Shown in pieces: positions 33,002-62,653 of a stretch of 64,000 bases of DNA. How positions within the stretch are numbered: position 1 is the stretch's first letter; every line of letters begins with the position of its first letter. A program made the translations under genes and the position numbers. The stretch is from a virus, in the UHGV virus genome UHGV-0038492; one strand, written 5' to 3'. A model generated the notes under the pieces. The model was not told the origin of the DNA. It saw only the letters and a program-made list of their open reading frames with translations, and did no database searches.

Positions 33002-33739
33002 ATGTTGAAAGTTTATGTCCCTCAATTACAACGTATTAATCCCTCGTTGTTCGAGGGATTCTTTTATAAAAACTGGCCACGGTTCTTCGAAGAATCCCTC
33101 AAAGATCCTAAGTGGACGACGATACAGGGGGAATTTTTCTGGACTGCACAATCGGCCTGTACCAACATCTTTGCTAACTTTGTCGGCGAAGTTATCAACA
33201 GTATCAACTCAAATATTCCTTTTGACCTAGAAAACGTAACCGTAGACCTGACCTCGATTTACGACGGGTATGATTGTTCCGATGTTAACTTCGAACATTT
33301 CTCTTCGGAAGAGGTTTGGGAGAAAGTGTATAACTGGTTGGAACATTATGTTAATACGCTGCTCTCACCGTCGATGTTATCGGGGTTCAATAAAGCGATT
33401 CTTCCTATCTACCACGACTTACTGAACGTTAAAGTAACGACGGGTTTAGTAGGGTACTGGTATTCCACCTACGACATGGAAAGCACGTTGTGGGAGAAAC
33501 AAATCAATGCGTACGGTATCGAGTACGGTGACTTTGAAGAAGTCTATCGCGGTTACTGGCCACACAGTTTCTACAGAAACAGAGAAGTGGGCGAACCATA
33601 TCTGTGGTCGTTTTATCGTTGCAACACCACGGGTGTTATTTATCTCGAAGACACCGGTGTGCAAATCCCTAACGGTGCTGATGTGACGTATTGTCAAATA
33701 CGCAAAGACCGGGGACACGTCATTTATAAGGATTATTAA
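33002..33739 (+). CDS. hypothetical protein (245 aa)
   Basis: Track ORF. Confidence 0.65.
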   Translation: MLKVYVPQLQRINPSLFEGFFYKNWPRFFEESLKDPKWTTIQGEFFWTAQSACTNIFANFVGEVINSINSNIPFDLENVTVDLTSIYDGYDCSDVNFEHFSSEEVWEKVYNWLEHYVNTLLSPSMLSGFNKAILPIYHDLLNVKVTTGLVGYWYSTYDMESTLWEKQINAYGIEYGDFEEVYRGYWPHSFYRNREVGEPYLWSFYRCNTTGVIYLEDTGVQIPNGADVTYCQIRKDRGHVIYKDY

Positions 33740-34285: not shown

Positions 34286-34810
34286 GTGGATATTTTAATT
34301 CAATTTCGTAAGAAAACAACCATTACCACGCCGATTGAGTTAGAGGAGAAAATCTCTAGCGCGGTTGCACGCAAGCTCTGTGGTGCTCACGGCTTCAGCA
34401 GTCATCAAGAACAGGTCGTTACTGCCGCCACATTACACAACTTACGACACACAGTACATTACTGTTTAGTTGACAACGTCACCATCACTCTTGATGATAC
34501 CGCAAAAGTCGACCAACTGCGTCGTGAAATTGACCACAAGATCGGCGTTTATAAAAGACGTTTTGATCGTGCCTGCGCACGTTTAACCGACAACGAGGCA
34601 TTATGGAAACGTTTGAAACTTGAAATTGAGTATGCGGCGCAGCGTTACGGGATTGGCAGTACCGAACCGTTGCTGACCGAACAAGAAATCATGTTAGCAA
34701 TCGAAGTTTACATCACCATTTGTCTCGCCAACCTAAAAGAAACCAACTACGAAATTACAAAAGCGCTGTTAAACACCATTGACAGTCTCTACCCAATCTT
34801 AGGACAATAA
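34286..34810 (+). CDS. hypothetical protein (174 aa)
   Basis: Track ORF, GTG start preceded by AAGGAG. Confidence 0.65.
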   Translation: MDILIQFRKKTTITTPIELEEKISSAVARKLCGAHGFSSHQEQVVTAATLHNLRHTVHYCLVDNVTITLDDTAKVDQLRREIDHKIGVYKRRFDRACARLTDNEALWKRLKLEIEYAAQRYGIGSTEPLLTEQEIMLAIEVYITICLANLKETNYEITKALLNTIDSLYPILGQ

Positions 34811-34811
34811 A

Positions 34812-35297
34812 ATGAACTTAAATGCAATTATCAATCTCTCTAATAGCGACTTTGTCCACGAGTTTCTGAACCACTGCGATCGCACAGAACAGTCTATCCG
34901 TAACTTGTTAGCTCCGAAAACAGTGGACGCCATCTGGATAGCTTCACATGCAGCGAGCGCTATCGTTGCGAGATACCGTGCGATGTTGCTAATGAATCTG
35001 GACAATTTCTTCAGTCATTCAGGTCCTATTACATGGACTTCTATCGGGCGTCGGCTTTACGACGTGCGTATCAAAACCCTACTCTCGATAACTAATGACT
35101 TGCACAGTGGATATATGCCTGACGTGATCGTACCGTACACTGTTCCCGAATGGCGACGCTTTTATAGTCAGATATGGAGTAATGAAAGCGTTTATCATGA
35201 AATAGTGGCTCTTATCAGTGCTGACCAAAACCAACTTGCATATCAGCTGTGGGAGTGGCTAAAAGCTAATTATCCAAACTACGTCAAGATCGACTAA
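34812..35297 (+). CDS. hypothetical protein (161 aa)
   Basis: Track ORF. Confidence 0.65.
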   Translation: MNLNAIINLSNSDFVHEFLNHCDRTEQSIRNLLAPKTVDAIWIASHAASAIVARYRAMLLMNLDNFFSHSGPITWTSIGRRLYDVRIKTLLSITNDLHSGYMPDVIVPYTVPEWRRFYSQIWSNESVYHEIVALISADQNQLAYQLWEWLKANYPNYVKID

Positions 35298-35302
35298 TAA
35301 AC

Positions 35303-35333
35303 ACCCTAGCTTCGGCTAGGGTTATTTTATTTT
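35303..35333 (+). terminator. hairpin terminator, CCCTA...TAGGG family (ACCCTAGC / GCTAGGGT, TTCG loop)
   Basis: 8-bp stem 35303-35310 / 35315-35322, followed by TATTTTATTTT. Confidence 0.75.
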
Positions 35334-35355
35334 AACCATTTTAGGAGCATATACC

Positions 35356-36288
35356 ATGTATTTGTACAAAAGTAAAAAAGTAAAAGGTATTAAAGACTGC
35401 CTTAGACAAATGGGGAGTCAGCATCTAGAAAATGTCATGGAAGAAAACCAAACAAAAGAAAATCCTGTCTCGAAATGGATAAAAAAGAATCGTAACCATT
35501 TAACCAATTCCTTTATACCCTACGACACTGAGTTAGGTCTCAAAGATCCACGTTCCCTTCACGCACAAACGTTGGCAATCGGGTGGCTATATGGCGGGGT
35601 TTCCTTAATATCCAACCAAGCACTTAGAGAACTTGTTTTCGAGACTGAGATGCCCAGTAAATTCCCTGAAGAATGGTTGGACTTTATACCCGCATGGACT
35701 GTGGCAATCGACGTAGGTAAAGAGGATGAGACTTTCTTTCTCGGCTATCGAAAAAATGGGAAGAGAAGGTTTATTATAATCGCTACAAATACTGATTACG
35801 GGTTAACAGAAGGAGTTACCACAATTGCCACTTGTTCGTTAGAGCTTCGTAGTGCAGGGAACGGGCTTGTGGAAATCGACTACGACGACGGTGTGGAGAA
35901 CGAACAAGAAAGGATGTTATGGTTATCTCTGGCCAAAGCCGCCACATCGATGATATTTCTGTGCACGCTAATCCCGCCTAATTACAGGGAGTCTTTTAAT
36001 GATATTAAGTTCAGGGAAATCAAAAAGAACGGTAGTATTAGTTACGACGTTAAACCGCGAGAACGTGATGTTAAGGTAGATATCACACCAGGACAAGTAA
36101 AATATCTAAAAGGATTTAACACCGACTTGAAAGCCATGCAGGGTATCAAACACGCCAAAGCTGCGCACATTCGTCGTGCCCACTGGCGTAGATATTGGGT
36201 TGGCCCAAGAAACGGTGAAAGAAAAAGAAAACTTTGCTGGATTCCACCGACATTTGTCCGAGGCTACGTACCCCACACGCAAGACTAG
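35356..36288 (+). CDS. hypothetical protein (310 aa); HIRRAHW-motif paralogue A
   Basis: RBS AGGAG; C-terminus KAAHIRRAHWRRYWVGP...CWIPPTF. Confidence 0.7.
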   Translation: MYLYKSKKVKGIKDCLRQMGSQHLENVMEENQTKENPVSKWIKKNRNHLTNSFIPYDTELGLKDPRSLHAQTLAIGWLYGGVSLISNQALRELVFETEMPSKFPEEWLDFIPAWTVAIDVGKEDETFFLGYRKNGKRRFIIIATNTDYGLTEGVTTIATCSLELRSAGNGLVEIDYDDGVENEQERMLWLSLAKAATSMIFLCTLIPPNYRESFNDIKFREIKKNGSISYDVKPRERDVKVDITPGQVKYLKGFNTDLKAMQGIKHAKAAHIRRAHWRRYWVGPRNGERKRKLCWIPPTFVRGYVPHTQD

Positions 36289-36298
36289 GAGAATTATA

Positions 36299-37183
36299 AT
36301 GTTAAGACGCAGAATTTATGGAGATACGCTTCGACGTATTAGTGAAGCTATAGAGACTGCACACAAAGACTTGTTTGGTCTGAAAGAAGATCGGTTTCTA
36401 ACGTTTGTCAGGGAACACAAGAGACAACTCCCCGTAACCTTTCTGCCCGTTAACGACCCAACGTACCGTGAGTTCGGCACCACCAAACAGGTGCCGTATT
36501 CTATTCGCCAGTCGTTAGGTTTGGGTTGGCAATACGCAGGTATTGAAATTATCTCTGATAACGAGTTGATGGGATTACTTGCAGACACAGAACGTTTAAC
36601 GGATATTCCGTACGCGTGGATTGAAGCCATCCCATCATTCACCTTTTCCGTGACTGTCAAGATTAATGAACTTCCTGCTACGCTCTTTATCGGTCGTCGT
36701 AAATTCGAAGGTGAAGAAGTATTGTTCGTTTTACGATGGGTGGAGATAAATCAGCGGCACTGTTGGACGACCAAGATTTATCGGTTCAACAGAAAGGCAG
36801 ATGACTTTGTTAGTTTAGAGCCTTACTTTGCTAACGAGTCAAAGGACGAGGAACTTCTGGATGAGGTACATATCGGTTTATATCTTTCCTCGCGGGTGAA
36901 GAAATCGGAACGCGAGAGACGGGAATACCGTGGTAGAACGACACGTTACGTACCTGATACAGAAATCCTTCCACGCAGAGAACCTGTCGTTGTTGACGTA
37001 AGTCCAGTACAACGCGAAGACTTAGAGAAACAACGCAGGGAAGGTAGGAGAATCTGTTTAACGCCGCATCGCGCAGCACACATACGCAGGGCACATTGGA
37101 AACGGGTCTGGTGTGGGCCAATGACAGGACCACGCTGGCAGGAGTGGCGATGGATTGCACCCACCTTTATATCCGGTTTTTAG
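36299..37183 (+). CDS. hypothetical protein (about 294 aa); HIRRAHW-motif paralogue B
   Basis: Track ORF 36176-37183 trimmed to ATG 36299 preceded by AGGAGAA; C-terminus RAAHIRRAHWKRVWCGP...WRWIAPTF; full-length similarity to paralogue A. Confidence 0.7.
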   Translation: MLRRRIYGDTLRRISEAIETAHKDLFGLKEDRFLTFVREHKRQLPVTFLPVNDPTYREFGTTKQVPYSIRQSLGLGWQYAGIEIISDNELMGLLADTERLTDIPYAWIEAIPSFTFSVTVKINELPATLFIGRRKFEGEEVLFVLRWVEINQRHCWTTKIYRFNRKADDFVSLEPYFANESKDEELLDEVHIGLYLSSRVKKSERERREYRGRTTRYVPDTEILPRREPVVVDVSPVQREDLEKQRREGRRICLTPHRAAHIRRAHWKRVWCGPMTGPRWQEWRWIAPTFISGF

Positions 37184-37200
37184 CGTGAAAATAAAGATTA

Positions 37201-37249
37201 CCCCTAGACCACAAGGTCTAGGGGTAGCTTTTACTTTTTATTTTTTGTT
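37201..37249. terminator. bidirectional terminator, CCCTA...TAGGG family (CCCCTAGACC / GGTCTAGGGG)
   Basis: 10-bp stem 37201-37210 / 37215-37224, 4-nt loop, followed by TAGCTTTTACTTTTTATTTTTTG; sits between convergent gene ends. Confidence 0.8.
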
Positions 37250-37993
37250 TGCCTTCAGCGCTTTCAGGCGTTCAGCCGTCACGTTCAGACATTCAATCAA
37301 TTCGTTCACTTGTTTCATGAACAAACCAAACAGTTCAACCCAATCGGATGCAAAGTCTAACATCGCTGTCAGCTCTTTTGCTACGTTAGGATGGATGTTT
37401 TGTTCAGACAGAATCGTTGCAGAGGCTTTAATGGACTCGATGGATTTGTCGATGTTCGTACGAAGTTTCTTCGTAATTTCAACGTTCAGTGCTTTTGCAC
37501 GGTTAAACGCAATATCGATTTCCGTAGCACTGTGGTACGTTTTCTCAATCGGACGCTGATCAATAACGTTGTTGGTGTAGGACTTAGCCAACTGGTTAAC
37601 CAGGTCTTTCGGATTCACGTTACGTAACGGAATGTTAACGTTTTTATAACGGAAGCCGATAGGTAATGACAGTACGCCCACATCATGTGTAAGGGCGGAA
37701 AGTTGCAACTCAACAGGTAAAAGGACACCGTCGTAGATCTTCTGTAATGAACTCCACACCGATTCTAAGCGGTTAATGTGATCCATTACGTAGGTATTGA
37801 AGCCTGGCGGTACAATAACCAACATGCCTGCAAAGTGTAAGAATTTTTCCTGTTGCATCCACTTGGAAACGTCTGACATGTCGTCGTAAGTGGTTAATGC
37901 AATCTCTTGTTGAGGGCCACTGAACCCTTTGGGTAAGATTGCAGACGCTTTAGCGGCAAAGCTAGTTAACGCTGCAAGTGGATTTACGTTCAT
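37238..37993 (-). CDS. hypothetical protein (251 aa), single-gene minus-strand island
   Basis: Track ORF. Confidence 0.7.
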   Translation of the reverse strand: MNVNPLAALTSFAAKASAILPKGFSGPQQEIALTTYDDMSDVSKWMQQEKFLHFAGMLVIVPPGFNTYVMDHINRLESVWSSLQKIYDGVLLPVELQLSALTHDVGVLSLPIGFRYKNVNIPLRNVNPKDLVNQLAKSYTNNVIDQRPIEKTYHSATEIDIAFNRAKALNVEITKKLRTNIDKSIESIKASATILSEQNIHPNVAKELTAMLDFASDWVELFGLFMKQVNELIECLNVTAERLKALKANKK

Positions 37994-39947: not shown

Positions 39948-40247
39948 ATGCGTTATCAAACGGAGATTGTGGAACGCTTAAGTGAAGGTTTAGCCAGCGT
40001 CAGCCTGGAAACAGCAGCGGCATTTCGTGAGACTTTCGCTACTTTCTTTCCCGATCGTGAATCTTTTTGTTTAAAGGTCGGTGAATATTATTCCAAGTTA
40101 CTCGAACACTACGGTTATCCGCCGGTGAAATTCGACGTACCTGAAAACACCGACGACATCAGTTATTGGATTGAAACCCTCGAAGCAGGGACACTATCCA
40201 ACTTGCGTAAGGCGGTAGAAAATGAAACTCGATCCAGCGCGGCGTAA
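39948..40247 (+). CDS. hypothetical protein (99 aa)
   Basis: Track ORF; RBS AAGGAG. Confidence 0.6.
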   Translation: MRYQTEIVERLSEGLASVSLETAAAFRETFATFFPDRESFCLKVGEYYSKLLEHYGYPPVKFDVPENTDDISYWIETLEAGTLSNLRKAVENETRSSAA

Positions 40248-40890
40248 AAAAGCAGAAGCTTACGCCTTACAAATCTTAAACCTGGTTGACCCCTCTGGGA
40301 TTAACGCGGAAGCAGCAAAGAAAGCCTTTGCTCGAATGACGGACGAACAGTTTAATCGTCTTCGTGAAGGGCTACCGATTTACAACCCGGTCGGTAGTAA
40401 AGTTAAAATAGACCACATGCGAAACGTTAAGCTTTGTCGTGTTTTAGGTTTGAACCTGGAACAACGGTTGTGGTTAACTGAACCGAAAACGGGTGTTTTC
40501 CATCGTACTCGCTATCCTCATCTGGTGCTACGTTTACCTGCGCGTCGTCAAACACAGATGCAAGAAAAGAAAATGGCGGTAGCGAAGAACGACAAAGTTC
40601 GTGATAAACTCTCCGGTCAGGTTGTTGGTCCTTCTAAAGCATCTGGTGTGTCCTTCCCAGAAGCGTACATCATGTACTCCGATGGTCACGACTGGACACT
40701 GAAAGAGTTTCTGTGGGCGCGTGGGGGTAACGAAGCGTTACAACGTGCGTTCTATCAATCGTTACGTCAAACCGGTAAGGGACGTATTGACCTACCGGGG
40801 GCAGAACGTACCAGTTCAAAAGCAACACGTACCTGGTCTGCGTATCTGAAAGCGATGCACATTGGTAACAACATAGGCCATCCGTCATGA
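40222..40890 (+). CDS. hypothetical protein (222 aa)
   Basis: Track ORF; overlaps the upstream gene by 26 nt. Confidence 0.6.
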   Translation: MKLDPARRKKAEAYALQILNLVDPSGINAEAAKKAFARMTDEQFNRLREGLPIYNPVGSKVKIDHMRNVKLCRVLGLNLEQRLWLTEPKTGVFHRTRYPHLVLRLPARRQTQMQEKKMAVAKNDKVRDKLSGQVVGPSKASGVSFPEAYIMYSDGHDWTLKEFLWARGGNEALQRAFYQSLRQTGKGRIDLPGAERTSSKATRTWSAYLKAMHIGNNIGHPS

Positions 40891-51617: not shown

Positions 51618-53819
51618 TTAACGTGCTTGCGGCAGGAAGATGTTCGCGATCTGGCGTGCTGGGATAACATCCAGTGCCGAGTTAATAAAACTACCCTGTG
51701 ACCATGCAGATGCCCAGTTTTGTGCCCAGATGCTCGCATTAATCTTGGCACGCGCAATACCGTTAGTACGTTCGTACAACGTAGCACCACCTAAACACGC
51801 CATAAATTCACTGAATTTGTTATCATCATCCCACACACCTGTGTCAGTAACAATGGGCATGTACATAACGCGAGTCAAATCACGAATAGTAACAGAGATG
51901 TCGCAAGACAGTGGGACGGAATCACCTGGCCGCCAACCTAAACCACCCACACCGAACTGTAACGACATCGACGTTACCATCGCATTACGGAACGAGAAAC
52001 GTCCTTGAGAGTAACACTCTAAGTAGAACGGGTGGGTAAAGGATTGTTTACCGGTTGCGAGCGGACACACTGCTGCAATCCAAAACGAAAGCGGAACTAA
52101 CAAATCCTGGAAAATATCCAGGTCGTTACCCGACCAACAACGTAAAGGAATGGTTAAAGTAATGTCGTCTCCTGATGCGTCAGAACTATCCCAGACTTCT
52201 GGGAAGTCTATCACCGAGGAGTTGTACAACGACATTATCCCTGTCAAATGTAGGGTGTCTGCAACGCCTCGCATCGCTGACTTAATACCGGAAACTAAAG
52301 CATCGACCGCACTAAAACCGGTTTGTCCACCCGACAGGTTAACCTCCAACGAACGCGCTTTTGCTGTTGCGGAGTTTACCATCCCGGAAATTTCAGGTTC
52401 TTTCGTGGAGTTAGAGAACGAACGCGAAACGGTGTCTTTACCATCAATACGCCAAGTAACCCATTGTGAACCGTTCTTAATCTCTGACAGGACGTTATCG
52501 CCAACATCCGCAACCATATCGGTAAACTCTTTAAAGAACGTTCCTACTTTGGATTCATCTTTACCTTTGTTCATCCAATCTTGAACTTCGACAATATCGC
52601 CCTCAGTAAGATCCTCCGGGTTCTTTTCATCCAACGTAGAATTCAACTGCTTAGCTGCTGCCGCACGTTTCTCCATAGCCTGACGGGTTTTTTCCTGCTC
52701 TGACTGGATTTCTGCGGCTTGCTGTTGTAGTTCATTAGCGGTACCACCCACCACCAGGCTATTACTCATCTGTCCGATGAGCTGGTCTTCCTGACTGTCA
52801 ATATCCTGTATCGGAGAAGCGTAACCACCCTTTTCACTTCTGGCAACTTTTTCCAAGTCGTATAGTGAGACTTCGAACTGTTCTGCTTTTAGACGTACGT
52901 TATCGCTGTAAGTAGCATTATAGTAAAACGCACGTAAGCGACTAGCAAACAATTCTTCATCGTCACCGGATTCTACACGAATCGCATCGATAGTTTTAGC
53001 CTGATAGTTCGCCAAGGTCTGGTAACGGTTAATCATTCGGTAAATGTCAAACTCACCGTTCGCTTTCCAGACTTCGGGTAAGGATTTATACCACTCTTCA
53101 CGATCTTTATGGTAACTATTTTCTTTGCTTTCGGTATCGTAGCCCAACGCAAAAGTCCCTAACACCCCTGTAGGTACCAAACGACGGTAAATTAGCTGGG
53201 TATTCAGGATGTTTTGCACCGCGCGCAAATACAGATGCATTGTGGGCTTAACGTAATAGTATCTTGACGTTTCTTTATTCAGCGCTGCCGAAAGAATTCT
53301 CGGTGTAATCAGAATCACCGCAAACGCTACAGTACCCACCGTCGCCCAAATAGCAGCCGCACCGATATACGATGCTGCTGTTCGAATAATTCCTGGATAG
53401 TCACCTGTACGCGCAAGATACGCCAGGTTAGAATCGTACATGTTCGCAAAGAACGAAGCCATACCCAGATACTTCGGTTTACCGAAACGGCAATGAACGT
53501 AAAATGAGTTCTGGCTGATACTTTCGTAGTAATACGTCCCTAAGCGATAAGACCCTGCGGCTGAGGAGTTATAAAGAGACTCGGTACCGCTCTTAGTCGT
53601 GTCGGGTTGTGCAAACGCGCCTGTTGAGGAAGGGTCTGCAAAAAGTGTAAACTGGGGCGGTGTGTTAATCGCTTTACTGCCACCAACTGTGGTGTCTTCA
53701 AACGACATCATACCACCGGAATAGCGGCGCAAGGCCAGGAAACGTTCATCTCGGCCATCGACTGCGCCATTAAATAGGTTTTTGACCCAGCTTGAGTCGT
53801 TAACTGTTCTAGCGTCCAC
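51618..53819 (-). CDS. putative virion structural protein (733 aa)
   Basis: Track ORF; immediately downstream of the 2377-aa gene on the same strand. Confidence 0.75.
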   Translation of the reverse strand: MDARTVNDSSWVKNLFNGAVDGRDERFLALRRYSGGMMSFEDTTVGGSKAINTPPQFTLFADPSSTGAFAQPDTTKSGTESLYNSSAAGSYRLGTYYYESISQNSFYVHCRFGKPKYLGMASFFANMYDSNLAYLARTGDYPGIIRTAASYIGAAAIWATVGTVAFAVILITPRILSAALNKETSRYYYVKPTMHLYLRAVQNILNTQLIYRRLVPTGVLGTFALGYDTESKENSYHKDREEWYKSLPEVWKANGEFDIYRMINRYQTLANYQAKTIDAIRVESGDDEELFASRLRAFYYNATYSDNVRLKAEQFEVSLYDLEKVARSEKGGYASPIQDIDSQEDQLIGQMSNSLVVGGTANELQQQAAEIQSEQEKTRQAMEKRAAAAKQLNSTLDEKNPEDLTEGDIVEVQDWMNKGKDESKVGTFFKEFTDMVADVGDNVLSEIKNGSQWVTWRIDGKDTVSRSFSNSTKEPEISGMVNSATAKARSLEVNLSGGQTGFSAVDALVSGIKSAMRGVADTLHLTGIMSLYNSSVIDFPEVWDSSDASGDDITLTIPLRCWSGNDLDIFQDLLVPLSFWIAAVCPLATGKQSFTHPFYLECYSQGRFSFRNAMVTSMSLQFGVGGLGWRPGDSVPLSCDISVTIRDLTRVMYMPIVTDTGVWDDDNKFSEFMACLGGATLYERTNGIARAKINASIWAQNWASAWSQGSFINSALDVIPARQIANIFLPQAR

Positions 53820-53864: not shown

Positions 53865-56800
53865 TTAACCTGCACGTCTAACGTTAAGCTGTCGTGCTGG
53901 CTGTTCAACGGACATTTGTCGTGATGCTGAACCTGCTGGTGCCGTAGGTTTAGACGATACAGTGTTTTGTACCGGCTGCGGGCGTTGTTTAAGGATCGTG
54001 ACAATCTCTTTGAGATAACCCGCCGATTCTTTTGCAACAGCCAACTGTTGAACACTAATCGGATCACCACTGCTGAGAGTAGGCCCGTTTTGTGCATCAG
54101 AAGTAACCGCAGGTGCCGGTTTACTCGTCGCTGCTGCACGCTGCACAGCACCTTCTTTCACCTTCTCGACATCCTCTTCCGGCAACCCTTCATTTCTGGC
54201 TCCGGCTGCAACAGTCTCCCCAATCACTGAGGCATCACCGCCTGCACTACTACCGCCAGGTGACGGTACTGCTGGGCCACCACTGGTTGCGGCTTTGACG
54301 TTGTCAGCACCCATCGCGCCTTTCTCTGCTAACGCATCGTCACGACGCTCAGCATTCGATGCAGGTAGGTTATCAGCCGGATCAGAAATCGACGGATCAT
54401 TAGCTGCTCCTGCTGCTACCGCCGGAGAGGAGGCAACCGCAGGCGTTAGCCCTTTCACCATGTCTTTCGTTGAAGCCGGATTAGCCGCAATTTCGTTTGT
54501 CGCCACAGCACCCATGCGGCGGTTCAGTTCATTAATAACTTCACCAACAGTACGAATACGAACAATCTGTTTGCCACGCATTTCGTAGAAGACCCCCTTA
54601 TTACCTCTAAGGATTTGAGGAGTAATGCCTTCTGCTTTGTCGGCTGGCATGTTCGGATTCTGACGCCACGCATTAAGGAACTTCTTACCACCGCCTGGAC
54701 CCAAGAAGTGATACAGATACGCAACAGCCGGAGGCGGCTCTACACCACCCAGGTCTTTCTGCGCCTGCATGATATTGTCACGAATAAACTGTACGCCGAG
54801 GATGGTATTTGCCCACGGGTCATACTGGTTTACTTGCGGTATACCGTACCGACGAGAATATCCTTTCATCATTCCAGACCACGTTTTGTCAATGAACTGG
54901 AACAACCCTGCTGCCGACGCACCTGGGTTCTTGACACCGTATTTGAAACCAGATTCGGCGTTCGCCATCGCAATCGCGACCGCAGGCGGAACACCTAAGG
55001 TATTTGCGACATCCGCAATCATCGCTTTAACGCCGTCTACGTTAGGTGACTCACCACTACCCAGTTTACTGATTGGATATTTCTCAGCCAAGGTTTTGTA
55101 GTCACCCTCTTTGACGTCTCCGAGTTTAATCCCAGATTGGCCCGTAGAGAACTTCGCGTAATTGCTAATACCCATCTCACCCACAACTTGAGACAAGTCG
55201 CCCGGAGTACCGTAAGACGCACCACCGTTTGGCAAGTACCCATCGTTAGACGCTGTACCCCAATCAACGACACCTTTGAAACGATCTTTGGTGTCTTCGT
55301 CGGTTTGGTACATTCTCGTCGCACGATCGGCTTTCTGCCACTTCGCACGTTTACCCGCTGCGGGTGTAGACCGCAGGGTATTACGAACAGCCAGGTCAGG
55401 TTCTTTGGACAGTTCTTTCAGGTTGGCAAGTTCGGTAGCAACAGAACCTGCGTCGGTGTTTGCTTCTTCACCCAGTGGGTTGAATGGAATCTCCCACACG
55501 GACTGACGAATACCACCCTTCATGTTGTAAGCGCCACGAATCATCAACGCCAATTCGTACATGAACCCACCGGATACTTTCAGTTCGGTAGGGTCTGCTT
55601 GCGGAATGTAACGTTTCAGACCAACAACGTAGGTCATATACGCCGGTAAGAAACGGTTGTAGAACCAGTTCTTACAACGCTCCTCTTTAGGGCCACCTAT
55701 CAGGTCAGGCGAGATAACCGCAATGGCTTCTTTCCAGTTGCCTTTATAGGTACAGTTCTTCACATCAATGTCTTTCAACACGTTCTTCTCTAACAGCGTG
55801 AAAAGATTACGTGTTGTTTGGTTGATAGTAACTGCGCCATAGGTCTTCCACCTGATCGATTCCAGGTCTTCCAAATCGCTTTTCTTCGGTAACGAATGCC
55901 AATCAACTTGGATTTGAACCTGCTCGGTTCCATCTTCCCAACCTTCAACCTTCGCAACTTTCTCGTTACGTTCAGCATCCGCATTCGCCAGTACCTGACT
56001 GGTTTCAGCAACAGACGCAACTTTATGTCCTTCGACAGCGTCACGCATACCCGAACGTTGTTTCCGTTTGTCGTCAGTACGCATGTTGATTGACCGCCAC
56101 ACACGTTCCTGTGCTTCGACAACCTCTTCCCCTGACAAGAACTCTGCCGGAGTAAAGGTAACGAAGTCCCACGCTTTAGAGAACCAACCCTGGTTAACTT
56201 TACGCGGGTCAGTCAACGAACGGAACTCCGCAGAATCTTTACCCATCTTCATTTTGTTGTAGAGGGTAATCATGTCCGCTTTCGACACTTTCTTCGGATC
56301 ACCGACATCTGCTAGAGCGATATCGTTATCCATGGACTTCAGTGCTGAAATCCAGCGGAGGTAAATCGGTGCGAAACGTTGTAGCATAAACGCAGTAAAT
56401 GCTAACATCTCACCACGTTCTTCTAAGTTAACACCGAACCCTTCTGCGAGTTTCTTCACGTCTTCGGAAGACAAGCCACGTAATTGTGCTTCACCCCCTT
56501 CGGTATACGAGACGTAAGGTTTCAAAGCGTCTTCTAAATAACGGGCTTTCATACCGTCTTCAGAAGACCACTGGTCGTAGTCACGGAAACCGTATTGTGC
56601 CAGACGCATATAGTCGAGGTATTGTGCTTTCACACGGGTGGCGCATTTATACGCCCAATAACCCAGACCAGCGACAGTCGCACCGATCGCAATTGCAGGC
56701 CATCCCACCGCCGCTACCACCGTAGACGCAGCCGAGGCTACCGCAGTCACTGCCGGAACCGCTAAACGTTGTACGGCAAACTTACCAACGTTCCACGCTG

Positions 56801-59800
56801 CTTTACCAAGGAACCCGGTGGGTTTAAAAATACCCCACTTCGCAACTTTACCCAGTATCGAACCCACCGTACCTAAGATACTCACGATTGGCCCTACTAA
56901 CGGTAAGTCTTTGAGGAAGTCCATCACCCCGCCTTTACGTCCTTTCTGCTCAGCGGTTTTCTTGGCTTTCTCTTCTTCTTTAGAACGTCTACGACGACGG
57001 AAGAATTGGAAGTAGTCACGTTTTTCATCGTTGGCTGCCGGTTTGTTACGCTGTCCGAACTTACTGAACATCGTACGAATCAGGCCATCTGGTGCACCGG
57101 CTCGCTCCGCAGAATCACGCATGGTGTTAAACCAGGACATTTCCTGAAGGTTAACCATCCGGTTCAAACGTTCCAGTAATGCTGAACCAACACTCTTCGC
57201 TTTCTGCTTACCTTTGTTGATAACGCGTCCTGCGGTATCCGTTGCGGTTTCGAAATCCTCCTTCGCTGCGTTAAACACGCGTGTTGGAGAAACCTTACCA
57301 CGAGCGTACAAGTGTTGGCGGTAAAACTCCGCAACGTCGTCATCACGACCTGCTAAACGCGACTCCGCCCGATAACGTGTGGCAATGTCGTAGCGTGGAT
57401 CACGGAAACTATCTACTGTTTCGCCAAAGCGTCCACGGAAACGGCCAAACCACCCTTTACCCGCAGCACCCCAACGAGACAGTCTATCGCCAACGCCATG
57501 ACGGAAACGTGAGAATCGGTCACGTTGTCTGCCTCGCCAATCCCGGAAATTCTGGAAGTAGTCTTTAAATCCGTCGCGGAAATCCTTAACACGGTTAAGC
57601 ATCCCTTTGATAGATTTCGAGCCAACGTTTTTCTCCAGTTGCTCCGTCCAGGATTCATCTTCAGGCTCACCGTCTAAACGACGGTTAAGGAGTTTATAGA
57701 TACGAATCAGGATATGGTTGGTCTTACGGCCATTCGACCAAGAGAACATGCTGAAGCCACCGCCAGAACCACCTTCCTTACGATTCTGCCACCACCGGGT
57801 AAGCGGGTTGTCAGTCGCTAACTCTTTGAATTTCTCAAAGCCACGTTTTGCATTGTTCCACAAACGAGCAGGCATTCCGGTTACGCGAGAAATCATGCTT
57901 TGTAAACGCGTTTTCTCACTGCCCTCAGGAATCTCATTAAGCCACTCACGCGCTTTCTCGAAGATAGACGCTGCTCTTGGCGAGATTAGTCCAATCAGTT
58001 TCTTCGGTAAGTTAACAGCTTTGTTTACTGCTGTACCTGCTTTACCGGAGATATACTGGAACAGGGCCTGGAGTTTACCGCCTTTATAGAAGCGCAATTT
58101 ACCTGCTGCCGCTAGATCGGCCGCTGCGAGAATCAAGTTCCCGGCTTCGTCGACAATATCACGACCTAGCTTAATGTCGTCTAACGAACGGAGTTGTACC
58201 AGCTTATTAGTCTTAGGGTCAGCCTGATAATACTCACCTGCCTCTAAGCGGCTACCTTGTAAAACGACATTGCCTTTTTCGTCGTAGATGTCTCGAACAC
58301 CAAGAACACCTTTCCCGAAGGCGACCGCTGAATTCCAGCCTGTGGACAATGTACCAGTAACTAAACCTTTCAGTCGTTCAAAAACACCCGGGCCGTCAGA
58401 TGGGCCACCGGAGAATTTCCCACGGATAAAACTGCCCAGTGACTGTAAACGTCCTTTCCCTCTCAGGAACATGTTCTTCGCAAAACGACCTGCACCCGTA
58501 CCGGTGTCCCAAAGTACGCCCGCCCAACGACGGAACAGACCGCTTTCACCAAGCACGATGCGTTTACGCTTGCGTTTGTTACCGGCGCTACCTGCATCTT
58601 CAGAAGTGTCATCCTCACCGTCACGACCACCGCCTAAGCTGGCCAGCAGAATACCCTCCTCATCCATGTTCTTGACATGTTTCAGAATTTCCTGCACGGT
58701 GTTGGATTCGGATTTGTTACGGATAGCATCGACGATTCTATCAAACTGCTGTTCTAGTCCTGCGGTGGTATCAGGGCGTTCACTTAACAGTTCAACAAAG
58801 TTGGTGGATTTTTCACCGTAAAGGACAGCAGCAAGTTGTCGTGCTGACAGTCCACGACCACCACGACCGCCTTTACCTTTAACGGAGTCAATCGTCGACT
58901 CGTCACCGGTTACGGAGGCGTCTACCCCTAAACGACGCAAATAGTCACCTAACGCAGAACCGTTTTTCAGTTTGCGCTGGATTTCTTGTTCACGCGTTAA
59001 CGAACGGCCGGAACGGGTTTTCCCCATGGCCAGGTCATTAAACAGCGTATACGGATCGTTAATGTCTTTATCTACATCAAACCGATCGTTCTTCGCATCG
59101 TACTTAAAGATGCCTGCATCACGTAACGCATTCTCACCGTAGATAATTGAAGCTTCGTCTACCGTGTTTTGACGTGCACGTATCGTTGACTGAATGGCTG
59201 AAATCTTACTAGCAATCTCATTGCTAAGTTCGTGATGACCGCCTGTCAGTTCTGAAGACCGTGCTTCTAAGACCGCCTGAATCGCTTCTACCGCGTTTGC
59301 ATTCATGTAACGATACATGTGCATCGGGTCTTTCAGCAGACTGCCTACGTCGAATGCCTTACCTTCAGACGCACGGGATTCAATATAGTCCGCCAGCGCC
59401 TGGCGAGTTTTCGAATCCAGGGTTTTGTCTTTGTCGATAAAGTCAACGGTTTCGTTAATGTACTGCTGTAAACGCTTCCGCTGTTCATCGTTCGCAACCG
59501 CTTTACGGACACGGTTACCGATAACTTTACGGTCAATCATCCCACGCGTGGTTAAATCGTACACCTGGTCGTGGTGTTCGCCGTACCCGCGACGAATAGA
59601 TTTGTTAATCTCCGTCAGCAAAGTCGGGATGACTTCCGTGATGCTAAGATACGCTTTACGGTCGAACTTCGCGGCGGCGGATAACGCTTCTGCTGAACGT
59701 TCTTCTAAAGCTAATCCCTCACGACGCAGCGGTGTCACTAACCCCATCTCGTGCATTAAACGGAAGACGGTGGCCAATGGGCCGTCTATCTCACCAGCAA

Positions 59801-60998
59801 TCGCCGAGTTAGAGATAGACGATAAGTTACCGAACCCGTATCGTGCCAGCTGAAGCCGTTTCATGACTTCTGGGTTCTTTTCTAACTCACTGCGTGTCCA
59901 GTTCTGTAAACGTTCTACCTGAGGCTGTAAGAATCGTTTTGCTAACCAACTACCAGCAAACCCTGCGACTTTACCTCGGGAGTTCGTACGACGACGTTCT
60001 GGCGACAGCGTAGAACTATCTTCCATGCCGAAGTCGTCTTCCTGACTCATTGACAGAACTTGTTCTAATATCCCGCGTCCGTCGCTGAAGATATTCGAAA
60101 TCTTTTTCTTCGCGTTCTCACGAATCTGATCAATAAAGTTATCCGCGTAACGCAAGGGGTTCATCCATTCGGCAGCTTTACGTTTTACGTTAGCCCAACG
60201 AACTTCAGAGAATTCCTCTTTTGCGTAGTCCGGCAACGCGGTGTTTTTAACAATCGCTTCAAGTGCCGGGGTGTTACGGCTAAACTCATCCTGTTTAAGT
60301 TTAGCAATATCTTGCAACGCGAATAACGTACGGTATTGCAGCTCTAACTGTTTACGCTGAACGTTAAGCATTACCCCACGACTTAAACTGGTCGTCAGGT
60401 TAACGTCTTTCGCAATACCGATAACCGTCTGGAACAGCGCATCGGACTTCATGTCCTTGATGGTGTCGCGAAGACGGTCTTCTACCATTCCTTCCTGAAC
60501 CTCGCGTTGTTGTTCAGGTGTTTGTGGTGTGCCTGCAAAAACAGAGTCTAACTCACGATCCATTAACGCTTGTTTAGGATCGTAATTCCCGTAATCGTAC
60601 TGGTCGCTTTTCGCCCACTTGTCGATCTTACGGGTTACACTGTCAGGCAAATACCGTTTTAGGGTTGGGCCTAACTGACGAGCTTGTGCCTTCACTACAC
60701 GGGAGGTCTTTTCAATCTCGTCTTTCGTATGGGCCAGAATGTCTTGACCTGCGGCTTTGACGTTCTTATAACCTTCATAAGCGTCAGTCGCCGGTTTTGG
60801 CATTCCTTTTAAAATGACCTGATCACGTTTATTTTCGGGCCAGATAGTCGACAACGCCGACTTACGGGCAGCACGAAATGTGTCCATGACCGGGTTACGC
60901 GATTGGTCTTGTTGACGAGGGGGCTCATCAAAATCGTCCCAGTCGTCCATGTTATCAAGATCGATTTCATCGAAATCGTCTTTACCTTTTTTAGCCAT
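53865..60998 (-). CDS. giant virion protein (2377 aa) with internal hydrophobic region and soluble-lytic-transglycosylase domain; resembles phiKZ gp181-type tail / ejection protein
   Basis: Single 7134-nt ORF; N-terminus MAKKGKDDFDEIDLDNMDDWDDFDE; hydrophobic stretch LPLVGPIVSILGTVGSILGKV...AVTAVASAASTVVAAVGWPAIAIGATVAGLGYWAY; SLT motif NAESGFKYGVKNPGASAAGLFQFIDKTW encoded near 54880-54950. Confidence 0.85.
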   Translation of the reverse strand: MAKKGKDDFDEIDLDNMDDWDDFDEPPRQQDQSRNPVMDTFRAARKSALSTIWPENKRDQVILKGMPKPATDAYEGYKNVKAAGQDILAHTKDEIEKTSRVVKAQARQLGPTLKRYLPDSVTRKIDKWAKSDQYDYGNYDPKQALMDRELDSVFAGTPQTPEQQREVQEGMVEDRLRDTIKDMKSDALFQTVIGIAKDVNLTTSLSRGVMLNVQRKQLELQYRTLFALQDIAKLKQDEFSRNTPALEAIVKNTALPDYAKEEFSEVRWANVKRKAAEWMNPLRYADNFIDQIRENAKKKISNIFSDGRGILEQVLSMSQEDDFGMEDSSTLSPERRRTNSRGKVAGFAGSWLAKRFLQPQVERLQNWTRSELEKNPEVMKRLQLARYGFGNLSSISNSAIAGEIDGPLATVFRLMHEMGLVTPLRREGLALEERSAEALSAAAKFDRKAYLSITEVIPTLLTEINKSIRRGYGEHHDQVYDLTTRGMIDRKVIGNRVRKAVANDEQRKRLQQYINETVDFIDKDKTLDSKTRQALADYIESRASEGKAFDVGSLLKDPMHMYRYMNANAVEAIQAVLEARSSELTGGHHELSNEIASKISAIQSTIRARQNTVDEASIIYGENALRDAGIFKYDAKNDRFDVDKDINDPYTLFNDLAMGKTRSGRSLTREQEIQRKLKNGSALGDYLRRLGVDASVTGDESTIDSVKGKGGRGGRGLSARQLAAVLYGEKSTNFVELLSERPDTTAGLEQQFDRIVDAIRNKSESNTVQEILKHVKNMDEEGILLASLGGGRDGEDDTSEDAGSAGNKRKRKRIVLGESGLFRRWAGVLWDTGTGAGRFAKNMFLRGKGRLQSLGSFIRGKFSGGPSDGPGVFERLKGLVTGTLSTGWNSAVAFGKGVLGVRDIYDEKGNVVLQGSRLEAGEYYQADPKTNKLVQLRSLDDIKLGRDIVDEAGNLILAAADLAAAGKLRFYKGGKLQALFQYISGKAGTAVNKAVNLPKKLIGLISPRAASIFEKAREWLNEIPEGSEKTRLQSMISRVTGMPARLWNNAKRGFEKFKELATDNPLTRWWQNRKEGGSGGGFSMFSWSNGRKTNHILIRIYKLLNRRLDGEPEDESWTEQLEKNVGSKSIKGMLNRVKDFRDGFKDYFQNFRDWRGRQRDRFSRFRHGVGDRLSRWGAAGKGWFGRFRGRFGETVDSFRDPRYDIATRYRAESRLAGRDDDVAEFYRQHLYARGKVSPTRVFNAAKEDFETATDTAGRVINKGKQKAKSVGSALLERLNRMVNLQEMSWFNTMRDSAERAGAPDGLIRTMFSKFGQRNKPAANDEKRDYFQFFRRRRRSKEEEKAKKTAEQKGRKGGVMDFLKDLPLVGPIVSILGTVGSILGKVAKWGIFKPTGFLGKAAWNVGKFAVQRLAVPAVTAVASAASTVVAAVGWPAIAIGATVAGLGYWAYKCATRVKAQYLDYMRLAQYGFRDYDQWSSEDGMKARYLEDALKPYVSYTEGGEAQLRGLSSEDVKKLAEGFGVNLEERGEMLAFTAFMLQRFAPIYLRWISALKSMDNDIALADVGDPKKVSKADMITLYNKMKMGKDSAEFRSLTDPRKVNQGWFSKAWDFVTFTPAEFLSGEEVVEAQERVWRSINMRTDDKRKQRSGMRDAVEGHKVASVAETSQVLANADAERNEKVAKVEGWEDGTEQVQIQVDWHSLPKKSDLEDLESIRWKTYGAVTINQTTRNLFTLLEKNVLKDIDVKNCTYKGNWKEAIAVISPDLIGGPKEERCKNWFYNRFLPAYMTYVVGLKRYIPQADPTELKVSGGFMYELALMIRGAYNMKGGIRQSVWEIPFNPLGEEANTDAGSVATELANLKELSKEPDLAVRNTLRSTPAAGKRAKWQKADRATRMYQTDEDTKDRFKGVVDWGTASNDGYLPNGGASYGTPGDLSQVVGEMGISNYAKFSTGQSGIKLGDVKEGDYKTLAEKYPISKLGSGESPNVDGVKAMIADVANTLGVPPAVAIAMANAESGFKYGVKNPGASAAGLFQFIDKTWSGMMKGYSRRYGIPQVNQYDPWANTILGVQFIRDNIMQAQKDLGGVEPPPAVAYLYHFLGPGGGKKFLNAWRQNPNMPADKAEGITPQILRGNKGVFYEMRGKQIVRIRTVGEVINELNRRMGAVATNEIAANPASTKDMVKGLTPAVASSPAVAAGAANDPSISDPADNLPASNAERRDDALAEKGAMGADNVKAATSGGPAVPSPGGSSAGGDASVIGETVAAGARNEGLPEEDVEKVKEGAVQRAAATSKPAPAVTSDAQNGPTLSSGDPISVQQLAVAKESAGYLKEIVTILKQRPQPVQNTVSSKPTAPAGSASRQMSVEQPARQLNVRRAG

Positions 60999-61027: not shown

Positions 61028-62653
61028 GTGAATAAACTTAATTGGGTTGACTTTTATCTGCTCAATGTAAACAAGTCTCTTGTGTCGCGATTACGACCCG
61101 TCACGACCACAGATACTTTTCAAGGGTTGACAAAAAACTTTCACCCTGAAGGGTTATACTCCACGGAGATATTCGGTCTTACGGGAAGTGAAGCCCGAGA
61201 CTCAACGTTTTCTTACATTGATATTAAATTAGATATCATTTCGCCGACGGTGTGTTTGGCGTTATTCCAACTAAAACAACTCTACGAAGAAATTTGTTCT
61301 GGAAAACGCTACGCAACCTGGAGCGAAAAAGAAAAAGATTTTGAACCGGCTTTGCCTGGCGACGCTGGCGCAGATACCGGTTTTAACTTTTTCCTTAGTC
61401 ACTACAACGACTTAAAACCCGGACGTAACGAATCGTTACAACGTGACGAAACGGTGGATTTCTTCGAGAAGTTCCGTCCCGTGAGTCTTAGCCGCTATGT
61501 TCTCGTATTACCCGCGGGCTTACGTGATTTGGTGGTTAGACAAGACGGTAGGGAACAGGAAGAGGAAATCGGCGGGTTATATCGTCGTTTGATTTCTTTG
61601 GCCAGGGCGATTCCTGACCGTGCTACACGGGTTGAATTAACGAACCCTGTGCGATGGAAGCTCCAACAAACCTTTAACGAAATCTGGATGTACTTCTTTA
61701 ACATCCAGGACGGTAAAGGGGGCTTCCAACGTCGTAAAGTGACGTCACGTAAACTGATGAACGGGACACGTAACGTATTGTCCTCATTCTCCACAGGCTC
61801 TAAATGCATGGGGCGTGAGGATGCGATTCGACCAACTGACACCAAAATTGGTTTGTATCAGGGTCTGAAAGCGTTACTGCCGGTTGCGCAATACCAGATA
61901 CGTGAACGTTACCTCGGTAACATTCGTGCTGGCGATGGCAACCTTTACGGCGTAAACACCAAAACGCTTAAACGCGAGTTCTTGGAAGTTGGGGGTCGAG
62001 TTTACGACACCTTTACCACGGACGACGGTATCGAAACATTAATTAACCGGATGGAAGCTCGCGAGCTTCGTCATCAACCGTTAATGATTAACGATACCCA
62101 TTACGTCGCGTTGGTCTACCAAGACAACAAACATTTTAAGGTGTTCTACGATATCGATGAACTGCCTAAAACGTTTGACCGTAAAAACGTCCATGGAATG
62201 ACCCTGGTAGAACTACTCTACTTATCGGGTTACGATCTGTGGAACAACTATTTCGGTTTCGTTACACGTTATCCCGTCACCGGTCGAGGCTCGACGTACT
62301 CATCGACCATAAGATTGGAGACCACCACGTCATCTTTATACTTAAAAGAACTGGAAGATGACTGGGAGACTGAAAAGCCTCGCGGGGCAATCAGTTATCC
62401 TGACCGCTCGGTTCCAACCTTTGTTGAGTCGATGGCACCGCACCCGTCACGACTGGGTGGCTTAGGGGGCGACTACGATGGTGACACCGGTTCACTTAAC
62501 GCGCCTATGTCGCAAGAAGCGCTCGAGGAAAACCGTAACTGGATACACTCGAAGAACTACTGGTTCGATTCTGACGGGAATTTCAAAATCAATCCTGTCA
62601 ACAACGTGATTAAACGTGCGACGCAAGCGTTATTAAAGAATCCAAAAGGCTAA
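61028..62653 (+). CDS. beta-prime-like subunit fragment of a split multisubunit RNA polymerase (N-terminal part incl. catalytic DxDGD), 541 aa
   Basis: GTG start preceded by AGGAG; [14 protein letters not shown] resembles beta-prime [36 protein letters not shown] resembles [44 protein letters not shown] resembles the catalytic [22 protein letters not shown] (E. coli beta-prime recalled from memory). Confidence 0.8.
   Translation: [541 protein letters not shown]

Follow-up and report, generated by a model that had tools for sequence, protein, structure and literature searches.

The stretch of DNA analyzed here, referred to as the window, comprises 64,000 nucleotides of the UHGV virus genome UHGV-0038492, and this report deals with two adjacent genes at positions 35356-37183, termed A and B. 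A first-pass annotation made from the letters of the DNA had singled them out as a pair of paralogues, and its coordinates proved exact, with products of 310 aa (A) and 294 aa (B). By their sequences, both proteins are members of the AcrVA2/FinQ family (Pfam PF26125), which is named after the anti-CRISPR protein AcrVA2 of a Moraxella bovoculi prophage (PDB 7CI1/7CI2) and the plasmid-encoded fertility inhibitor FinQ. Gene B lies inside a longer open reading frame (ORF) at 36176..37183; its true start is the ATG at 36299, a codon preceded by AGGAG, and relatives call the same 294-aa gene. The features of the locus are the following:

35303..35322, plus strand: terminator-like GC hairpin with an 8-bp stem containing five GC pairs, followed by the T-run TATTTTATTT
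35343..35347, plus strand: Shine-Dalgarno sequence AGGAG of gene A, 8 nt ahead of its ATG
35356..36288, plus strand: gene A, AcrVA2-like protein of 310 aa
36160..36255, plus strand: signature motif in A, residues A269-F300, AAHIRRAHWRRYWVGPRNGERKRKLCWIPPTF
36287..36291, plus strand: Shine-Dalgarno sequence AGGAG of gene B, 7 nt ahead of the ATG at 36299 and overlapping the stop codon of A
36299..37183, plus strand: gene B, AcrVA2-like protein of 294 aa, matching phrog_6160 with E=9.4e-22
37073..37168, plus strand: signature motif in B, residues A259-F290, AAHIRRAHWKRVWCGPMTGPRWQEWRWIAPTF
37198..37227, bidirectional: terminator-like hairpin separating gene B from a convergent gene, its stem 12-13 bp long
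37238-37993: the convergent gene (251 aa)

The hairpin at 35303..35322 would close the upstream gene array and insulate the A-B cassette on its 5' side, and the position of the AGGAG of B, overlapping the stop codon of A and 7 nt from the ATG, makes translational coupling of the two genes possible. A and B are paralogues: in BLASTP they share 25% identity over ~300 residues with E=2e-24, well past chance, which bears out the similarity along their length that had been claimed for them. Both finish with AAHIRRAHW[RK]RxWxGP...WI[PA]PTF, so that the shared basic-aromatic C-terminal motif holds for both proteins, except that the W.W element included in its first description is found solely in B (WRW), A having LCW. 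The C-terminal 55 residues of A and B are strongly basic (pI ~11.3-11.4, with 12-13 Lys and Arg and 3-5 Trp residues), and the remainder of both proteins is near neutral. A third copy of the A/B family was searched for in the window and none was found.

The motif, which had been reported as not assignable to a known family, is the hallmark of the AcrVA2-like proteins (Pfam PF26125; PDB 7CI1/7CI2; FinQ of IncI plasmids). Both A and B match PHROG 6160 (function unknown). Compared alone with the sequences of the PDB, A finds AcrVA2 (7ci1_A) with E=7.2e-5, the motif being aligned to residues 277-317 and to the sequence HTKRPHIRRGHWHGYWQGTGQAKEFRVRWQPAVFV, and a profile of 18 phage homologues finds the same chain with E=5.2e-23, profile positions 57-313 being aligned to chain residues 64-320. 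In 1.84 billion proteins this profile retrieves 5158 cluster representatives at E<=1e-3. An independent family hidden Markov model (HMM), built solely from 146 distant representatives, none of which is of the lineage of the window, scores AcrVA2 with 3e-43 and FinQ with 6e-62; it matches A with 2.2e-19 over residues 26-303 and B with 9.8e-11, mainly over residues 189-292 together with a weak colinear stretch at residues 77-121. Precomputed annotation places PF26125 'AcrVA2-like' on the proteins P0001 (100% identical to A) and P0004 (99% identical to B), and also on both genes of the related contigs L001, L002, and L011; in the large protein database, every close relative of A and B has this annotation. 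A local Pfam scan of A and B gave no match with a copy that is without the PF26125 model, a null result that is uninformative because AcrVA2 itself gets no match in the same copy. NCBIfam and PADLOC scans of A and B returned nothing useful, and a weak PADLOC match to mREase_IV (E=0.015) was dismissed as noise. The three-domain fold of 7CI1, with a helical N-terminal, an alpha/beta middle, and a four-strand C-terminal domain, is found again, and in the model of A the strands of the four-stranded C-terminal domain lie at residues 271-301.

The residues of the motif can be read against those mapped in AcrVA2. AcrVA2 triggers a translation-dependent loss of cas12a mRNA, regardless of promoter and codon sequence; the variants H286A, R288A, and H291A keep Cas12a binding and lose down-regulation, and W79A and D89A cause a partial loss of function (Marino et al., 10.1101/2022.11.29.518452). 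How AcrVA2 destroys the mRNA is unsolved according to the same preprint and to a 2026 review (PMC13131331). The equivalent residues are:

AcrVA2 H286: H271 in A, H261 in B
AcrVA2 R288: R273 in A, R263 in B
AcrVA2 H291: H276 in A, H266 in B
AcrVA2 W79: W77 in A, W77 in B; column 99% Trp
AcrVA2 D89: N87 in A, D87 in B; column 82% Asp

The columns for H286, R288, and H291 are 100% conserved in the 146 representatives, and those for the His, Arg, and His together with W295, P298, and G283 are conserved to 99-100%, as are the H, R, H, W, G, W, and P of the motif, which is why the C-terminal motif of A and B is the signature of the family. The position of AcrVA2 H293, which follows the HW and is His in 98% of the 146 representatives, is Arg in A (R278; 36187-36189) and Lys in B (K268; 37100-37102); in gp235 of the phage Asesino it is Gln. 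The motif largely coincides with a characterized domain, the outcome that the first-pass annotation had named as its refutation: the structure of the founder is solved, and mutation has mapped the residues of the motif as needed for mRNA down-regulation.

A binder of nucleic acids or membrane surfaces that belongs to no family and carries a sticky basic-aromatic tail could explain why this tail is so basic and rich in Trp, and such a tail may contact RNA or the ribosome. We find this explanation hardly credible, for the pair has a family, the motif forms in the model a structured four-strand beta domain with an invariant His/Arg/His and no compositionally biased tail, and single substitutions of these residues in AcrVA2 kill activity and spare target binding (10.1101/2022.11.29.518452). 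Binding to membrane surfaces, which had been proposed from the composition, finds no support either: B is without a transmembrane segment, and the sole hydrophobic stretch of A is the conserved buried helix of the soluble family fold. Engagement of a nucleic acid, be it RNA or the ribosome, by the motif is a plausible possibility.

The source of the window is an SPN3US/Asesino-like jumbo phage. The window carries the markers of phiKZ-like jumbo phages, namely split multisubunit RNA polymerase (RNAP) beta genes, UvsX, RNase H, SbcC-like proteins, and large virion proteins, and the RNAP beta fragment encoded there shares 86% identity with the one of Salmonella phage SPN3US. The split RNAP genes, which are typical of phiKZ-like phages and which served solely for phage placement, are separate genes at 40222-40890 and 61028-62653 that match the beta-subunit PHROGs 3233 and 2986. 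The neighbors of A and B serve replication, recombination, and transcription by RNA polymerase, and include genes for an exonuclease, RNase H, UvsX, and RNAP beta. The closest phages have Salmonella, E. coli, and Erwinia as hosts; a megablast search of deposited phages with the locus gave no match at the DNA level, and the relatives are metagenomic contigs of 201-225 kb. Since SPN3US encodes a diverged chimallin homologue (PMC9365700), the lineage of the window is probably nucleus-forming.

Given the founder of the family, A and B might be genuine type V-A anti-CRISPRs that lower Cas12a as AcrVA2 does, a reading to which we attach very little probability. It is favored by the common family and fold and by the conserved effector residues, and proteins that cluster with AcrVA2 and 'may function as Acrs' have been reported from huge phages (PMC7162821). 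AcrVA2 (322 aa, compared with 294-310 aa) has the same three-domain layout, its core H-I-R-R-[AG]-H-W is identical, H286/R288/H291 and W79 are kept in A and B, and all of these proteins are encoded by mobile elements. However, outside the tail the identity of AcrVA2 to A and B is just 11-18%, and the Cas12a-binding residues that would mark a type V-A anti-CRISPR are not conserved: of the contacts E98, D129, and D195, D129 is placed within an indel, A has E185 and B has N179 where AcrVA2 has D195, and the equivalent of E98 is Glu in both proteins in a region that is poorly aligned. AcrVA2 is encoded in a Moraxella prophage beside acrVA1, in contrast to A and B, which form a stable tandem pair in a lytic jumbo phage of enterobacteria, and its residues H293 in both proteins and D89 in A are replaced as given above. 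Two highly divergent copies are also hard to square with a single conserved target. The CRISPR systems of Salmonella, E. coli, and Erwinia are known to be of types I-E and I-F, which counts further against Cas12a. Most homologues occur in bacteria without Cas12a (Marino et al., 10.1101/2022.11.29.518452), and a phage nucleus, as suggested by the chimallin homologue of SPN3US (PMC9365700), already excludes DNA-targeting nucleases. Cas12a is therefore unlikely as a target: the residues that contact it are not kept, it is absent where most members of the family occur, and a phage nucleus would shield the genome.

That the family acts on targets besides Cas12a, and does so in the host range (E. 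coli, Salmonella) of the relatives of this phage, is shown by FinQ, which is encoded on IncI1 and F-like plasmids and lowers F tra mRNA. The homologues of AcrVA2, including FinQ, sit on plasmids and megaphages, mostly without Cas12a (10.1101/2022.11.29.518452), and a search with an AcrVA2 fragment finds finQ-annotated genes on ~500 enterobacterial conjugative plasmids. FinQ has the same tail, PHIRRGHWHTYWTG...WLPP, but its direct similarity to A (46% across 39 residues with E=3e-8) and to B (E=0.006) is confined to this tail, and it differs from A and B in being a single plasmid gene beside trbA with a 9-residue insertion within the motif. Orthology of A and B to FinQ was rejected in view of the phage genome and the tail-only similarity; the shared superfamily remains.

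Among the relatives the locus behaves as a slot, flanked on one side by the array of small genes downstream of RNase H and on the other by the convergent 251-aa gene upstream of UvsX. In SPN3US the slot is empty, gp213 adjoining gp214 at a distance of ~60 bp (L010, JN641803.1 186719-186782). It is occupied by one AcrVA2-like gene in SaP7, JN03, EC001, Lh1B, Asesino, and pEa_SNUABM_4 and by two in the window and in at least nine related contigs (L001, L002, L011, L012, and L014-L018). A and B are hence dispensable accessory genes. The single-copy genes, found in jumbo phages of Erskinevirus, Seoulvirus, Machinavirus, and Alexandravirus (for instance Asesino gp235 and SaP7 ULF48428) and all labelled 'hypothetical protein', resemble A and B in their syntenic slot, in matching PHROG 6160, and in the tail; they differ in being present once and not twice and share just 24-29% identity with A or B. 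Thus, A is no closer to B (25% identity) than to the single-copy genes, and the second copy is either old or separately acquired. Doubling is rare: among 78 IMG/VR loci with a family gene, six hold two within 5 kb, and five of these six belong to the lineage of the window. The sole unrelated doubled locus of the 78 (L056:2226-5345; IMGVR_UViG_3300007802_000022) has two AcrVA2-like ORFs ~1 kb apart, and its doubling is independent of this lineage. The allele of JN03, EC001, and Lh1B shows just 40% identity to that of SaP7, though they are of the same species as SPN3US. Further family homologues are encoded by Erwinia phage RisingSun (MF459646.1 128482-129123), where the label 'putative mycothiosynthase' is probably a mis-annotation, and by the temperate Lactobacillus phage JCL1032.

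Comparison with the contig L001 divides A into two modules, for which substitution rates (dS, synonymous; dN, nonsynonymous) are given together with those of B:

35356..36000, plus strand: variable module of A, residues 1-215, comprising the helical N-terminal domain and most of the middle domain; dS 1.34, dN/dS 0.2
36001..36285, plus strand: conserved module of A with residues 216-310, among them those of the four-stranded C-terminal domain; dS 0.19, dN/dS 0.05
Gene B: dS 0.10, dN/dS 0.07

The window is 95% identical to L001 overall and 57-85% identical across 34800-36000; the variable module of A has 57-75% nucleotide identity against a background of 95-100%, and identity snaps back to 95-98% at ~35960-36000, near residue 215 of A. 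Residues 216-310 of A are 96-100% identical at the protein level in all relatives. A is thus built modularly with a fixed tail, and the contrast in dS together with the low dN/dS indicates that residues 1-215 were swapped for a distant allele by recombination. Positive selection acting in place on the N-terminal part of A was rejected, dN/dS being 0.2 with saturated dS. Purifying selection acts on the two copies (dN/dS 0.07-0.2), and the most variable stretch in A and B alike is at about residues 141-200 in the middle domain. The alleles of A and B reassort independently in at least three combinations: A1/B1 occurs in the window, L014, and L015; A2/B1 in L001, L011, and L017; and A1'/B2 in L016, L018, and probably L012, a contig that includes the A-like gene only for its final 148 residues.

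These data bear on whether only one copy is functional and the other a decaying duplicate or decoy. Such a view would fit B, which departs more than A does from the family consensus and whose model found no match among structures. But every mapped essential residue is kept in both proteins, both genes are intact in at least ten contigs, even where B is just 63% identical, B is constrained at a dN/dS of ~0.07, and a separate Shine-Dalgarno sequence precedes each of the two genes; we judge a functionless second copy to be highly improbable.

The reading that we favor, and to which we give a reasonable though far from complete degree of belief, is that A and B form an accessory AcrVA2/FinQ-family pair of two target-specific mRNA-silencing factors with different targets, probably not Cas12a. 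The variable part (about residues 1-215) would recognize a short peptide of one target protein, probably during its translation in the cytoplasm, and the conserved module, H-x-R-x-x-H-W...W-x-G...W-x-x-P, would then trigger the loss of the mRNA of this target, possibly by acting as, or by recruiting, a ribosome-associated RNase. As the effector tail is shared and the recognition part almost wholly different, the two proteins most likely silence two different targets, which may be proteins of host defence or of competitor elements. It is by analogy to AcrVA2 that we infer the silencing mechanism, the division of labor between the modules, and the kind of target.

Several points weigh against this reading. 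AcrVA2 is reached neither by B on its own nor by a profile of two B sequences, and the model of B (predicted local distance difference test score, pLDDT, of 70) has no significant Foldseek match, which leaves the family profiles and the paralogy to A as the grounds for the membership of B. A carries N87 at the position of AcrVA2 D89, and neither protein has the His of the H293 position. The assignment of recognition to the N-terminal part is read from its variability and from the description by Marino et al. of structures diverging toward the N-terminus. The proposed mechanism draws on one characterized protein, AcrVA2, described in a preprint (10.1101/2022.11.29.518452).

The same family and mechanism could also serve targets outside of defence, either in host physiology, by shut-off of particular proteins, or in the gene expression of the phage itself. 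An older picture of FinQ, that of an inhibitor acting on a specific operon at the level of transcription, is similar; FinQ lowers the mRNA of the tra operon and attacks no immune system, and the cassette lies among genes for exonuclease, RNase H, UvsX, and RNAP beta. On the other side, SPN3US has nothing in the slot, the content of which also varies within one species, so that its genes are dispensable for the core programme, and allele replacement and reassortment are typical of conflict genes. Non-defence targets in the host would possibly be compatible with both dispensability and reassortment; taken as a whole, targets of this kind appear rather unlikely to us.

Within the favored reading of two target-specific silencing factors, a more specific proposal can be made, which we offer tentatively and consider somewhat doubtful. 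The pair may be a two-channel peptide-guided mRNA silencer that acts in the cytoplasm against defences that the phage nucleus does not keep out, for example RNA-targeting, translation-level, or abortive-infection proteins, and that is re-targeted in nature by swapping a recognition cassette of ~215 residues, the effector tail to which it is joined staying fixed. If so, the alleles A1, A1', and A2 and B1 and B2 would make a ready specificity panel for the study of nascent-peptide reading and mRNA destruction.

A and B are no new kind of protein, as their family is known and named, has a solved structure, and is partly understood in its function. The AcrVA2 family comprises more than 5000 sequence clusters, of which AcrVA2 alone, with Cas12a, has a target identified at the protein level. 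The locus assigns PHROG 6160 and many jumbo-phage 'hypothetical proteins' to the AcrVA2/FinQ family. What is new is a rare, stably kept tandem pair in a slot with 0, 1, or 2 copies, of which the effector tail is shared and the rest is not. The natural chimeras have a sharp junction at about residue 215 that is the probable boundary between specificity and effector functions, and the locus is a convenient system for target finding and for domain swaps.

The genes upstream of the cassette are variable as well. The 161-aa gene directly upstream of A (34812-35297, plus strand) has no PHROG match and is multi-allelic, with 43-86% amino acid identity among relatives whose flanks are 98-100% identical; in L011:4941-5941 it is doubled in tandem, the two divergent copies having 28% identity. 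No co-variation was found between this gene and the N-terminal allele of A, and because the alleles assort independently it is not an obvious partner of A. The 245-aa gene at 33002-33739 (phrog_8219) is hypervariable, with 65-69% identity in all relatives and a dS of ~1.5 in comparison with L001, and its alleles also assort independently of the N-terminal allele of A; the 180-aa gene beside it is 94-98% identical in most relatives. A BLASTP comparison of the upstream small genes with one another found no paralogy. Across 33.0-36.0 kb, the accessory genes appear to form a hot spot of recombination. Antisense ORFs within A and B (e.g., 36316-36660) were rejected as spurious, being inside genes under purifying selection and not called in relatives.

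Scans of the window for Rfam families and tRNAs revealed no RNA family and no tRNA. Very large ORFs lie on the minus strand at 53865-60998 (2377 aa) and 51618-53819 (733 aa), and the 733-aa protein matches phrog_3181 (function unknown). At 54-60 kb there is a block of higher G+C content (0.50) with negative GC skew that coincides with the large minus-strand ORFs.

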